Assembly (NCBI GenBank): GCA_965373035.1
Contig: CBDVEP010000001.1
Location: forward strand, 272-64,271
Direction of reading: 5' to 3'
Source of the DNA: an uncultured bacterium
GTDB taxonomy: Bacteria; Spirochaetota; JAHITG01
DNA length: 64,000 bases
Shown here: piece after piece, positions 22,938 to 49,000 of the stretch
Layout: every line of letters starts with the position of its first letter
Position numbering within the stretch: the stretch's first letter is position 1
Translations under genes and position numbers: made by a program
Notes under the pieces: model-generated
Seen by the model: the letters and a program-made list of their open reading frames with translations, nothing else
The model's database searches: none
What the model was told of the DNA's origin: nothing

Positions 22938-22952
22938 TTTCTGATGTTAATT
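22938..22952 (-). promoter_or_regulatory. Sigma-54 (-24/-12) promoter of the porin-amtB-glnK operon
   Basis: Minus-strand reading TGGCAC-GTTGT-TTGCT, a perfect match to TGGCAC-N5-TTGCW. Confidence 0.7.
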
Positions 22953-23038
22953 ATAAAGCAAACAACGTGCCAAGTCATACTTTATAACTATTGATATTCA
23001 ATAAATTATAAAAATAATTTTTTAATTAAATCATCAAT

Positions 23039-23057
23039 TTGCACTAAATTTATGCAA
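23039..23057. promoter_or_regulatory. Candidate enhancer/UAS palindrome TTGCA-N9-TGCAA about 90 bp upstream of the amtB sigma-54 promoter
   Basis: TTGCACTAAATTTATGCAA. The same arms and spacing recur upstream of nifH. Confidence 0.4.
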
Positions 23058-23489
23058 GTTTATAATATTTTTAAAATCCGCATAATTAATATGCAATTTT
23101 TATATACACTATCCTCCACATTTTACAATAAAATTTATAAAATTAAACAAATTTAGTAACTTTCAGCAGAATATATTTTGGAATTAATCCTTCAGGATTT
23201 CATTACTTTAAAAATGAAACATGAGCAAGCCATTTCATCCCAAGAAGAGGTAGTATATACTCAAAAAATTTTACAAAGATAAAAAGCTTCCTTGATATAA
23301 GGAAATTATAATATATATTTGTCTTTAGGTGAAAGAAACTATGAAAGCAATATTTGAACAGTTAATTGTAGATTTTCATGGGTCTAAAATTCCACAGCCT
23401 AGTAAAAGAGAATTAACTCTTCTGTCTCTACCTATTTTAAACAAATGATATCAGGACATTTTTTATATTTATCTTATTCTTTTTATTTC

Positions 23490-23925
23490 TCATTTCCATG
23501 GTCCATGAGCTTTCCATGTTTCGTTAAACTTATAATCCTTCTTGATTGCATCAAGTGGCTTAATAAGAAACCTTTCTATCTCCTTTGCTGTAGTAGACAA
23601 CTTTTCAGGTGCATGTTTAATATCTCCCTTTTTCAAAAATGCATTCCAAAGTATTTGGCGATCCGATTTTTCATCATAGATTTCTTCAGCAAATAATGGG
23701 CTATCCTGCGGAAAAGGAGTCTTACGATGCTTAAAAGTTCTTCTTAACGCTTCGGCAAGTTGAAATCCATTAAAATTGAACTGGCGCATCATTAGCCATA
23801 TATCATAGAAATCTTTCCATACCATAATACTGCAGAATTTCTGAAAATGAACGATTAGTTTCTTTAGCTTTATTTTGGAGCCGGGCTCGTACAGAAGCTT
23901 GTAAATTCTTGATATCTTTTTTCAT
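23490..23925 (-). pseudogene. Degraded AbiEii toxin gene (N-terminal 40 codons, stop, then C-terminal 111-codon ORF in another frame)
   Basis: MKKDIKNLQASVRARLQNKAKETNRSFSEILQYYGMERFL* starts at 23925, overlapping the AbiEi stop. An AbiEii C-terminal-like ORF 23490..23825 follows. Confidence 0.5.
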
Positions 23926-24524
23926 AGCATAGTCTCAAGTATTGGTTTTATGATATTATCAACACGGCAAATCTTGGCATATTGCATTATTTCTTTTGGT
24001 TTTACATTCTTTTCCGTAACAGCTACTTTAAGAGCTTCCCGTATAATGTTCATCCCGAGTTTATTACGGAATTTAAAACAATCCGCAATCGTCTTGGCAA
24101 GATTATAAACCTTGATTTTATAACCTTCTATTTTGTGTTCTTCAATTCCAGCCTCCCATGGTTTAGGACCAAAACGGTAAAATCTAACTGGAGGATATTT
24201 GATTCTATAAGCATGAGTACCCCGTGGAATAGCTATGTCCACATACTTAGGGATTTCAGTTGTTGCCTCATGAAAAGAAAGAGCAGAGAGAAGACAGATA
24301 ACTCCCCGGGGAGCCTGAAAAGATACAGCAACAAGGTCAGGATGGATCCCGGCAGTATAATTAGTCAGCTTGTAAAGTCCCCTGGCAATCTTTTCAACTT
24401 TCTTCTCTTTCTCAAGAGTGTTAAGTGAATCGGGATGAAATCCAGCTTTTAGAATAGCTGAAAACCTGACCACTCCGCCATTACTCTGGAAAAAATTTAT
24501 AAGTCCTTGTGTTTTTCTTTGCAT
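23922..24524 (-). CDS. AbiEi-family antitoxin domain protein (probable start at internal Met; long ORF extends to 24656)
   Basis: RGLYKL.. wHTH-like N-terminus from MQRKTQGLINFFQSNGGVVRFSAIL. Directly upstream of the AbiEii remnant. Confidence 0.5.
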   Translation of the reverse strand: MQRKTQGLINFFQSNGGVVRFSAILKAGFHPDSLNTLEKEKKVEKIARGLYKLTNYTAGIHPDLVAVSFQAPRGVICLLSALSFHEATTEIPKYVDIAIPRGTHAYRIKYPPVRFYRFGPKPWEAGIEEHKIEGYKIKVYNLAKTIADCFKFRNKLGMNIIREALKVAVTEKNVKPKEIMQYAKICRVDNIIKPILETML

Positions 24525-24771
24525 ACTGCCTCCGTATAATATTGTAACATTTATGAATAAGTATATATAATTTATACGAAAATGTAAAATATTTTTTTTA
24601 AACGTCAAATTCAGGGTTTCTTGAATCTCGTAATGCGAAAAAATTTTATCCGTCAATAAGCTTTTACCCTATCGGGTATCTGTGATCTATCATAAGTGTG
24701 AAATAAACTATTTACAGAAACAGGTGTAGAAGTAAGCTTTCCACCTTATAATAAAACAATGTAAATTTAAA

Positions 24772-24805
24772 TTGACTTTTTAAAATTACATGGTATAATT
24801 ATTAT
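24772..24805 (+). promoter_or_regulatory. Strong sigma-70 promoter with extended -10 placed for a leaderless transcript of the DUF4143 ATPase gene
   Basis: TTGACT (24772-24777), 16-nt spacer, TGgTATAAT (-10 at 24794-24799). ATG at 24806 is 7 nt after the -10. No SD. Confidence 0.55.
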
Positions 24806-47673: not shown

Positions 47674-47687
47674 GGGTTTCTCCTTAA

Positions 47688-48020
47688 TTATTTTTCCTTA
47701 TTGCCGGAACTTATTGTATATACTTCATCTACCTGTGTAACAAATATTTTACCATCACCATAAGCTCCGGATTCTTTTGTTTTTGCATTCTTAATAATAG
47801 TTCTGATAACAAATTCCTTATCTTTCTGGGGGATTACAGTTATCAGTAACTCCTTTGGAAGTTCATCATAGGTTACTTCTCCAACTTTTAATCCTCTTTG
47901 TTTACCCCTGCCAAATACTGATACCTTTGTAACCGCAGGACATCCTGCTTCAAGCAATCCTGCAAGTACTGCATCAGTTTTTTCAGGTCTTACTATTGAT
48001 CTTATCATTAACATAGACAT
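47688..48020 (-). CDS. nifI1: PII-family nitrogenase regulator NifI1
   Basis: PII fold (GRGKQRG..GDGKIFV). First PII gene after nifH. Confidence 0.75.
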   Translation of the reverse strand: MSMLMIRSIVRPEKTDAVLAGLLEAGCPAVTKVSVFGRGKQRGLKVGEVTYDELPKELLITVIPQKDKEFVIRTIIKNAKTKESGAYGDGKIFVTQVDEVYTISSGNKEK

Positions 48021-48045
48021 AATATATCCTCCATTTTATAATTTT

Positions 48046-48870
48046 TTAGTTTGCAATACCAAAGTCTATAAGAAGTTTTTCAAGCTCTTCCATTTGTATT
48101 GGTTTTGGGATTACAAACATTTTATTTTCGTCCATCTTTTTTGCAAGAGCTCTATATTCATCTGCCTGGGGATGTTTAGGTTCATACTCAATTACAGTCT
48201 TTCTGTTTATTTCTGCTCTCTGGACAACTTTTTCTCTTGGGACAAAGTATATCATTTGAGTTCCCAGTTTTTTTGCCAGCTCTGTAATCATCTCTTGTTC
48301 ATTGTCAACCTGACGGCTGTTACAGATAAGTCCGCCAAGTCTTACACCGCCTGAATCAGCAAATTTAACAATACCTTTACAGATATTGTTTGCAGCATAC
48401 ATTGCCATCATTTCACCGGATACAACAATGTAGATCTCCCGTGCTTTTCCTTCCCGCATAGGCATGGCAAATCCGCCGCATACAACATCACCAAGAACAT
48501 CATAAAAAGCATAATCAATTTCATACTTATCATCATAAGCACCAAGTTGTTCAAGAAGATTAATAGCGGTTATAATGCCCCTGCCTGCACATCCGACGCC
48601 AGGTTCAGGTCCGCCTGATTCAACACATCTGGTCTTTCCATATCCTTCTTTAATGACTTCTTCAATATCAATATCTTCACCTTCTTCCCGAAGAGTATCA
48701 AGAACTGTTGTTTGAGCAAGACCACCAAGAAGAAGACGTGTAGAGTCTGCCTTAGGGTCACAACCCACAACCATAATCTTCTTGTCCATTTCAGTAAGTC
48801 CTGCTACAATATTTTGGGTCGTAGTTGACTTACCTATTCCACCTTTTCCATAAATTGCTATTTTTCTCAT
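48046..48870 (-). CDS. nifH: Nitrogenase iron protein NifH (start taken at [11 protein letters not shown]; track ORF extends to 48921)
   Basis: Walker [10 protein letters not shown], Switch motifs, Cys ligands (..CAGRG.., ..VCGGF..). SD AAGGAGG 7 nt upstream of the chosen ATG. Confidence 0.9.
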
Positions 48871-48913
48871 TTTAGCCTCCTTAATTTTAAAATTAATCAT
48901 TAAACAATTTTTA

Positions 48914-48968
48914 AATATCAATCCAGTTTTTGATATTTAAAAAAAATTCGCAAGTCATAACTTGCGAA
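48914..48968. promoter_or_regulatory. Two palindromes in the nifH leader: ATATCAA-N8-TTGATAT and TTCGCAAGT-N5-ACTTGCGAA
   Basis: 48914-48935 and 48947-48968, between the sigma-54 -12 element and the nifH SD. Confidence 0.4.
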
Positions 48969-48985
48969 CTTTCAAATATTATAAA

Positions 48986-49000
48986 GCAATTACTATGCCA
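48986..49000 (-). promoter_or_regulatory. Sigma-54 promoter of the nif operon
   Basis: Minus-strand TGGCAT-AGTAA-TTGCT. Flanks TATGACTTGGCA..TTGCTTTATAAT shared with the amtB promoter. Confidence 0.65.

Follow-up and report, generated by a model that had tools for sequence, protein, structure and literature searches.

Predicted sigma-54 promoters with a paired-dyad enhancer probably connect nif, glnA and amtB genes with an EbpA-type activator in an uncultured spirochaete

Nitrogen genes of the locus

The DNA analysed here, hereafter the window, is a stretch of 64,000 nucleotides (contig CBDVEP010000001.1 of assembly GCA_965373035.1) from an uncultured bacterium of the Spirochaetota, with a G+C content of about 30%. 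It carries three sets of nitrogen genes on the minus strand, namely a porin-amtB-glnK operon, glnA and a nif operon, each preceded by a predicted sigma-54 promoter, and the gene of a putative sigma-54 enhancer-binding protein divergent from glnA. These promoters, their upstream sequences and the activator that may serve them are the subject of this report.

Gene identities are based on matches to NCBIfam and Pfam profiles. The porin-amtB-glnK operon (20276-22757) consists of a gene for a porin-like protein (22080-22757), amtB (20635-22005) and glnK (20276-20617). The match of AmtB reaches 470 bits (cut-off 343); the porin-like protein gives a weak match to the TorF/Gcw type (36.7 bits, under the cut-off of 47). 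The same gene order is found in two of the loci compared below, L163 and L003. The gene glnA (27675-29087) codes for a type I glutamine synthetase (TIGR00653, 639 bits against a cut-off of 429). The nif operon (40558-48870) starts with nifH (48046-48870), followed by nifI1 (47688-48020), nifI2 (47296-47673), nifD, nifK, nifE, nifN and nifB, and additional co-directional genes lie downstream of nifB. The products of nifI1 (110 amino acids) and nifI2 (125 amino acids), encoded between nifH and nifD, are PII homologues. The open reading frame of nifH opens with a TTG at 48921, but the gene truly begins with the ATG at 48870, which is preceded by a strong ribosome-binding site.

Sigma-54 promoters

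The motif TGGCAY-N5-TTGCW occurs exactly three times in the window, where 0.17 matches are expected, and none of 100 dinucleotide-preserving shuffles reaches three. Each of the sites is located between genes on the minus strand, in the right orientation before porin-amtB-glnK, glnA and nifH-nifI1-nifI2-nifDKENB; the initial annotation had quoted their sequences, and each is present where it had been placed. The -24/-12 element of the porin-amtB-glnK operon is at 22957-22972 (TGGCACGTTGTTTGCT), with a predicted start at about 22946 and a leader of about 190 nt. That of glnA is at 29147-29162 (TGGCACATCTTTTGCT; predicted start at about 29136, leader about 50 nt) and that of the nif operon at 48985-49000 (TGGCATAGTAATTGCT; predicted start at about 48974, leader about 105 nt). 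The spacing between GG and GC, within the common form YTGGCAC-N5-TTGCW, is exactly 10 bp at all three promoters.

A looser scan of the window, with GG and GC obligatory and up to three mismatches to TGGCACG-N4-TTGCW, ranks the same sites best (0, 1 and 2 mismatches). The scan yields 13 additional matches, each with two or three mismatches and all within coding regions. The sequence TGCCAC-N5-TTGC at 33683-33697 was rejected as a sigma-54 site; its GG is broken and it is located inside gltD.

The comparison with relatives covers the window and 171 other loci, 2.18 Mb of scored sequence in total, with L-numbers as labels of the comparison loci. The orthologous amtB promoters of L163 and L003 keep their element as TTGGCAC-N5-TTGC, the glnA element is kept in L163 and L164, and the nifH element in L165/L166. 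TTGGCA and TTGC are invariant across eight aligned promoters and are found in two promoters of L171 as well, while the flanks vary. The three promoters of the window had been described as near-identical, which is correct for amtB and nifH, but glnA shares the core only. The three promoters are colinear over their upstream 140 bp, which are 51-53% identical when aligned at the GG without gaps. For intergenic 150-mers paired at random within the window, identity is 36 +/- 3.6%, with a maximum of 49% in 3000 pairs. At the level of sequence, the three sites are established as real sigma-54 promoters of the -24/-12 type. Their start positions are predictions, and the presence of rpoN in the genome is implied by the intact GAFTGA motif of the activator described below.

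A paired-dyad enhancer

Each of the three promoters carries two 17-bp dyads of the form TGMAY-N7-RTGCR, in which the upstream similarity among the promoters is concentrated. The centre of the proximal dyad is 77-79 bp upstream of the GG (about -102) and that of the distal dyad 116-118 bp (about -141) at all three promoters. The two dyads are thus 39-40 bp apart, which corresponds to four helical turns. The window contains two matches to the strict form TGCAY-N7-RTGCA against 0.26 expected, one at the amtB and one at the nifH promoter, each at about -102. With one mismatch allowed there are 12 dyads against 6.3 expected, and five of these 12 are within the three promoter regions, spaced 39 bp.

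At the amtB promoter, the proximal dyad (23040-23056, TGCATAAATTTAGTGCA on the minus strand) is centred 77 bp upstream of the GG; L163 has an identical copy, and L003 reads TGCACACAATTTATGCG at an equal distance. The distal dyad (23079-23095, TGCATATTAATTATGCG) is centred at 116 bp, 39 bp from the proximal one. The proximal dyad of glnA (29230-29246, TGACTGAAATTTGTGCA), also centred at 77 bp, has a degenerate left half-site; the sequences in this position are TGACTGAATTTTGTGCA in L163 and TGAACTGTTTTTGTGCA in L164. The distal glnA dyad (29270-29286, TGAATAAAAATTATGCA; 117 bp) is only about 67 bp from the start codon of the activator gene, which makes autoregulation of the activator through this dyad possible. 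The pentamers of the proximal nifH dyad (49070-49086, TGCACTAATATTGTGCA; 79 bp) are perfectly palindromic, and its counterpart in L165 is TGCACTAACATTATGCA. The distal nifH dyad (49109-49125, TGAACATTAATTATGCA; 118 bp) is identical in L165, yet the 22 bases that separate the two dyads there have 10 differences from the window.

An A+T-rich block lies between the proximal dyad and the promoter of amtB (22980-23013, minus strand; TTTTATAAT...ATATCAA...TTATAAA), with equivalents at 29169-29203 for glnA and 49008-49042 for nifH. The identity of these blocks among the promoters is 0.48-0.63, compared with a background of 0.38 +/- 0.05; by inference only, they may be bending sites of the IHF/HU type. 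None of the three upstream regions contains the NifA site TGT-N10-ACA. Paired dyads and promoter, in a fixed arrangement, form one enhancer design common to the three predicted promoters.

The activator

The enhancer-binding protein encoded at 29353-31392 on the plus strand has 679 amino acids and the domain order GAF-GAF-Sigma54_activat (PF00158, 240 bits)-AAA_lid (PF25601)-HTH_8 (PF02954), the last being a Fis-type helix-turn-helix. It has an intact GAFTGA at residue 434 and the Walker A sequence GDTGTGKE. As the initial annotation had noted, this double-GAF protein is the sole AAA+ sigma-54 activator of the window.

The best NCBIfam model for this protein is that of NifA (TIGR01817), with 472.8 bits against a cut-off of 528.85 and a match limited to residues 174-601; the best solved structure, 9qq6_C, is likewise a NifA (2e-86, residues 174-600). 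The C-terminal 80 residues are closest to Fis (GIHRNTLREKIKYYKIN versus GINRGTLRKKLKKYGMN), and the R-N-T...K recognition helix is invariant across the activator family, Leptospira included. There is no Response_reg match at the N-terminus, and NtrC models score far below their cut-offs. We therefore rejected two assignments. The protein is not a NifA proper, being below the cut-off, with an extra N-terminal GAF, a Fis/NtrC-like DNA-binding domain and no TGT-N10-ACA at the promoters; nor is it an NtrC, as its N-terminus is GAF-GAF without a receiver domain. The earlier description 'NifA-like' is accurate for the second GAF and AAA+ domains, which match NifA best, but not for the first GAF and the DNA-binding domain, as judged from these profile matches.

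Two Leptospira proteins, P0106 and P0114, are 41-42% identical to the activator over 98-99% of its length. Leptospira interrogans has only two sigma-54 activators, EbpA and the NtrC-like EbpB, of which EbpA is the one with two GAF domains (PMC12655853). The predicted protein of the window is best filed in the EbpA family rather than as NifA or NtrC. A genome search with the activator gave about eight full-length relatives, the remainder being paralogous AAA+ domains. The closest relatives are from metagenome-assembled Spirochaetes/Spirochaetota, with 44-47% identity in Brevinematales assemblies, and a relative with 72% identity shares its contig with flaA, the spirochaetal flagellar sheath gene. 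The source of this low-G+C window is therefore a spirochaete that is probably related to Brevinematales.

Conservation of the composite motif in relatives

The composite motif was defined as a sigma-54 promoter together with both dyads, and dyads at 75-81 and 114-121 bp were scored beside each strict sigma-54 match. There are 48 strict matches in the 2.18 Mb, nine of which have both dyads with at most three mismatches in total. All nine are in the window itself or in L003, L163, L164 and L171, four loci whose activators are 62-92% identical to that of the window. The remaining 39, from other phyla and more distant spirochaetes, have at least six dyad mismatches, so that the distribution is cleanly bimodal. 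A tenth case, the nifH promoter of L165, was seen by eye; its -12 element reads TTGCC and therefore failed the strict pattern. Every compared relative with an activator at least 62% identical has the composite motif. Beyond the window there are seven composite promoters, before glnA, amtB, nifH, a GAF-ANTAR gene and a NuoE-like gene.

In L163 (activator 92% identical), glnA is divergent from the activator gene, porin-amtB comes right after glnA, and both glnA and amtB have dyad promoters. L165/L166, from the same samples as L163 and with 97% identical NifH, carry the dyad promoter before the nifH operon. In L164 (activator 81%), glnA, again divergent from the activator gene, has a dyad promoter. 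The promoters of L171 (activator 77%) are downstream of the activator gene and precede the NuoE-like gene and the GAF-ANTAR gene, which is followed by ANTAR-type hairpins and a glutamate-synthase-like gene; a further dyad pair lies just upstream of the activator gene, beside a truncated gdh. In L003 (activator 62%, G+C content 45%), porin-amtB-glnK is divergent from the activator gene, and the amtB promoter and its dyads are at equal distances despite the different base composition.

For a relative with 60% identity, only gene order is considered: GSIII-amtB-PII is divergent from the activator gene. The activator gene thus adjoins a target in four arrangements: divergent from glnA, divergent from porin-amtB, divergent from GSIII-amtB-PII, and followed by a dyad promoter. 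Its linkage to glnA or amtB persists in relatives down to 44% identity. The claim of one regulon for nifH, glnA and the amtB operon gains from this comparison, as the common two-dyad layout is kept in relatives while its surroundings, including the spacers between the dyads, drift.

A metagenome search with NifD yielded 80 loci from other taxa (32-67% G+C), which served as negative controls; some have sigma-54 sites before nifH, none with the dyads. The ebpA locus of Leptospira sp. GIMC2001 (L169) has no nitrogen genes and no composite motif nearby. In distant Brevinematales (L006, 9810-9910; L009, 9810-9920; L007, 7963-7978), glnA is divergent from a GAF-GAF activator gene and has sigma-54-like promoters, with an upstream dyad of the form TTGTAATT-N12-AATTATAA. 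Because the dyad-to-promoter distances of L006 and L009 differ by about 10 bp, the two loci preserve the helical phase. A spirochaete with 40% G+C and 86% identical NifH (L170) has sigma-54 promoters before a homocitrate-synthase-like gene and nifH (6413-6428 and 7950-7965), with a repeated CAATTTTGTA motif upstream in place of the TGCAY dyads. Sigma-54 control of nif seems to be common in the phylum, with enhancers that differ.

Leader sequences

The predicted nif transcript carries, at about +3 to +36 (48939-48972, minus strand), a 13-bp stem-loop followed by U8. Its sequence, GAAAGUUCGCAAGU-UAUG-ACUUGCGAAUUUUUUUU, resembles a complete intrinsic terminator at about +3 to +40, and a second hairpin follows the first (fold z = -4.56). 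The stem-loop is conserved in L165/L166 (at about 413-447 in L165), where a single A-to-G substitution leaves a G.U pair in place. It does not belong to the ANTAR type, and there is no upstream RNA able to compete with it. The hairpin may act as an attenuator or 5' stabiliser, or in the DNA as an operator (TTCGCAAGT-N4-ACTTGCGAA).

The leader of the porin-amtB-glnK operon has a strong Shine-Dalgarno sequence followed by a tiny open reading frame (ORF), AAGGAGGTGTTGCCAGTCAAACAAAGTTAA, at 22860-22890 on the minus strand. The orthologous leader of L003 (about 5095-5120) reads AAGGAGGTGAATAAAATGTAA, a start codon with a stop immediately after it. This tiny ORF before the porin gene could be a leader-peptide or ribosome-loading element. 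Rfam gives no match in the window at its gathering threshold; neither of the long leaders, that of amtB or that of nifH, therefore contains a known riboswitch or leader RNA.

RNA-level signals of another kind are found in some relatives. In L171 (3447-6059 and 6273-6460), the GAF-ANTAR gene is preceded by a dyad-plus-sigma-54 promoter, and twin hexaloop hairpins with a terminator are present before the glutamate-synthase-like gene and before the NuoE-like gene. In L167 (5870-6005) and L168 (5850-6000), whose NifH is 88% identical, the nifH leader contains hairpins of the ANTAR type and a terminator; in L167 a GAF-ANTAR gene is located beside glnA and there is no sigma-54 site before nifH. The window itself contains no ANTAR gene.

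Other nitrogen genes and inserted regions

The gene ptsP (58657-60915, plus strand) codes for a GAF and enzyme I protein of the EI-Ntr type; gltB starts at 61321. The ORF at 55463-57769, a candidate for PtsP, was rejected and is an MMPL transporter instead. Family matches support the presence of glnK, nifI1, nifI2 and the GAF-containing ptsP, all of which had been listed in the initial annotation as signs of layered nitrogen control. The case for such layering, with NifI1/I2, GlnK and PtsP, is one of gene inventory; neither ptsP nor gltB carries a sigma-54 or dyad signature, and PtsP gives no indication of membership in the regulon. Within the window, the composite motif is absent upstream of the Glu_synthase-like gene, the gltD-like gene, gltB and ptsP; the first of these and gltB are preceded by TTGACA-type hexamers instead.

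Downstream of the activator gene, on the opposite strand, there is a cluster (31622-35818) that includes genes for an FNR-like Fe-S protein (34967-35818) and a GltD-like NADPH oxidoreductase (33637-35019). The third gene (31622-33262) codes for a 546-amino-acid protein with the FMN domain of Glu_synthase only, 66% identical to the product of the ANTAR-controlled gene of L171. Its TTGACA-type hexamer is about 100 nt upstream, and it has no sigma-54, dyad or ANTAR signature here, unlike in L171; regulation of this gene therefore differs between close relatives. In the interval between ptsP and gltB, an ORF of 92 codons (60985-61260) gives a match confined to the C-terminal part of the tetramerisation domain of HydF. 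It is probably a pseudogene remnant; a full-length hydF is present at 5435-6682.

Between the amtB operon and glnA (23490-26640) are genes for a truncated AbiEii toxin (111 amino acids), an AbiEi antitoxin and an AAA_14/DUF4143 ATPase, and an ORF of 156 amino acids. In L163, porin-amtB directly follows glnA with no such insertion, which indicates that the insertion is recent and has split an ancestral glnA-porin-amtB cluster. A dense set of toxin-antitoxin or defence-type genes, interleaved with housekeeping genes (e.g. one of aspartokinase type), occupies 7609-18064. It includes two further AbiEii genes (8100-8807, with a helix-turn-helix partner at 7609-8103, and 16660-17469, with 17456-18064), a HEPN/nucleotidyltransferase pair (14300-14973) and a second AAA_14/DUF4143 ATPase (10529-11854).

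Discussion

We consider it likely that the three sigma-54 promoters constitute one nitrogen regulon, in which nif, glnA and amtB are directly co-activated by the one-component EbpA-type activator. The two-dyad enhancer and the assignment of the regulator to the EbpA type, and not to NifA, are additions to the earlier promoter observation. The GAF-GAF protein would be the one that binds the dyads; its RNT..K recognition helix of Fis type fits a dyad of NtrC type. According to this model, dimers of the activator would occupy the two dyads, and under nitrogen limitation a signal would be read by the GAF domains; the analogy with NifA and PtsP points to 2-oxoglutarate, glutamine or a PII protein as candidates. 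The signal would permit oligomerisation and ATP hydrolysis, and DNA looping across the A+T-rich block would bring the GAFTGA loops to the sigma-54 holoenzyme in the closed complex. The promoters of nifH-I1-I2-DKENB, glnA and porin-amtB-glnK would then open together. Such a circuit would be flat, with one activator for the jobs that are split between NtrBC and NifA in Proteobacteria, and NifI1/I2 and GlnK would add post-translational control.

Some observations weigh against this model. An RpoN box was not found by regular expression in six-frame translations of the window and the 171 loci. The predicted nifH transcript opens with a hairpin resembling a terminator, which is at odds with a simple on/off switch. 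In the Brevinematales with 44-47% identical activators, the linkage to glnA and a TGGAAC-N5-TTGC or TGGTAC-N5-TTGC element are kept but the upstream motif differs, so that the assignment of the site to the protein rests on their co-occurrence. Finally, a dyad of this NtrC-like form would suit an NtrC-type response regulator, encoded in another part of the genome, equally well. The dyads might then be bound by an activator from outside the window, such as a classical NtrC, and the GAF-GAF protein would regulate something else or part of the set. The agreement of the dyad with the enteric NtrC consensus in geometry and outer pentamers is compatible with this explanation, as is the presence of the NtrC-like EbpB in addition to EbpA in L. 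interrogans (PMC12655853). We nevertheless find it unlikely: the composite motif tracks the close GAF-GAF activator, whose gene is beside a dyad promoter in five independent loci and four arrangements; none of these five dyad-bearing loci has a REC-type activator, and the recognition helix of the GAF-GAF protein is itself of the Fis/NtrC type.

The promoters could also be of the sigma-70 type (ATGACT-17-TATAAT), overlapping sequences that only look like sigma-54 sites, with the dyads as operators of TnrA/GlnR-like or other nitrogen regulators. A sigma-70 match of 10/12 does overlap the nifH site, the same hexamers are present at the amtB site, and TnrA/GlnR sites have a 5-7-5 layout like that of the dyads. 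However, the -35-like hexamer is not conserved among orthologous promoters (ATGACT, ACAGCT, ATGGCT, GCACTT, ATAACT, CATAGT, GCGGCT) and neither is the -10-like hexamer (TATAAT, TTAATA, TATGGT, TATAGG), whereas TTGGCA and TTGC are invariant, which argues against a sigma-70 reading. Moreover, sigma-70-like matches are no commoner than in shuffles (5 versus 5.6), the dyads at -102 and -141 are in enhancer and not operator positions, and their sequence differs from TGTNA-N7-TNACA; we regard this explanation as very improbable. Chance similarity without any common regulation deserves mention, given that the intergenic DNA of a window of about 30% G+C is very A+T-rich and inflates apparent similarity. 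It is effectively refuted by the shuffles, by the bimodal distribution of the composite motif over the 48 sites, by the conservation of the sites in the 45% G+C relative L003 and by an anchored identity more than 4 s.d. above the intergenic background.

Several known systems resemble the regulon predicted here. One is that of Leptospira, where EbpA and RpoN activate amtB and two lipoprotein genes, EbpA is needed for growth in low nitrogen and a sigma-54 promoter is predicted for glnA (PMC12655853 and PMC5243855, which summarise Hu et al. 2017). Both systems are spirochaetal and based on sigma-54 promoters, their activators share the architecture of two GAF domains, AAA+ and helix-turn-helix, and amtB is an experimental target in Leptospira and a predicted one here, with glnA proposed. 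Leptospira has no nitrogenase operon, whereas the regulon predicted here includes one. In addition, glnA or amtB is found next to the activator gene here, while ebpA of GIMC2001 has no nitrogen neighbours, and a defined pair of 17-bp dyads is proposed for the present system.

The promoter glnAp2 of Escherichia coli has two NtrC sites at about -140 and about -108. The enteric system and the present one therefore have in common two sites upstream of a sigma-54 promoter, and also the targets glnA and glnK-amtB. The enteric site, TGCACC(A/T)4TGGTGCA (PMC4987338, PMC8743547), is likewise a dyad of 17 bp, in which an A/T-rich centre lies between the outer pentamers TGCAC...GTGCA; these pentamers and their spacing agree with TGCAY-N7-RTGCA, but the inner C/G pair does not. 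The systems further differ in the sensor, which is GAF-GAF here and not a receiver domain phosphorylated by NtrB, and in nifH, which is apparently controlled directly here and not through nifLA. NifA and, as predicted, the present activator are GAF-containing one-component sigma-54 activators acting before nifH, but the C-terminal domain of the latter does not align with NifA (matches end near residue 600), and the regulon predicted here is not nif-specific, the same enhancer being present before glnA, amtB and, in relatives, other genes.

In Geobacter, the GnfL/GnfM system has one sigma-54 activator upstream of nifH and nitrogen-assimilation genes, with two sites at about -131 to -91, and GnfK/GnfR provide a second layer by ANTAR antitermination (PMC2995071). 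A single activator serving nifH and assimilation genes directly is thus common to GnfM and the present model, and the GAF-ANTAR gene under a dyad promoter in L171 mirrors the second tier of Geobacter. GnfM and GnfR are two-component response regulators, whereas here both layers, where present, are GAF one-component proteins. More tentatively, and with rather less confidence than in the regulon itself, we propose that in this spirochaete lineage one EbpA-family GAF-GAF activator has replaced NtrBC and NifA, and that a nif checkpoint at the RNA level exists in addition (the nifH leader hairpin here, GAF-ANTAR proteins in relatives). This would be a one-component mirror of the GnfLM/GnfKR cascade.

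In the literature searched we found no paper on the control of nitrogen fixation in Brevinematales or related spirochaetes. Conceptually, the proposed regulon is a textbook enhancer-dependent sigma-54 regulon, unsurprising to the specialist and useful for annotation. The cassette of promoter and enhancer, about 170 bp long, might serve together with the single activator as a nitrogen-responsive expression module. If the model is true, a single GAF-sensing activator can take the place of the NtrC-to-NifA cascade known from Proteobacteria. For this uncultured branch of the Spirochaetota, the three promoters, the 17-bp site and the candidate activator provide a concrete model of how nitrogen fixation may be switched, one that would extend the EbpA-RpoN pathway of Leptospira from ammonium uptake to nitrogenase.

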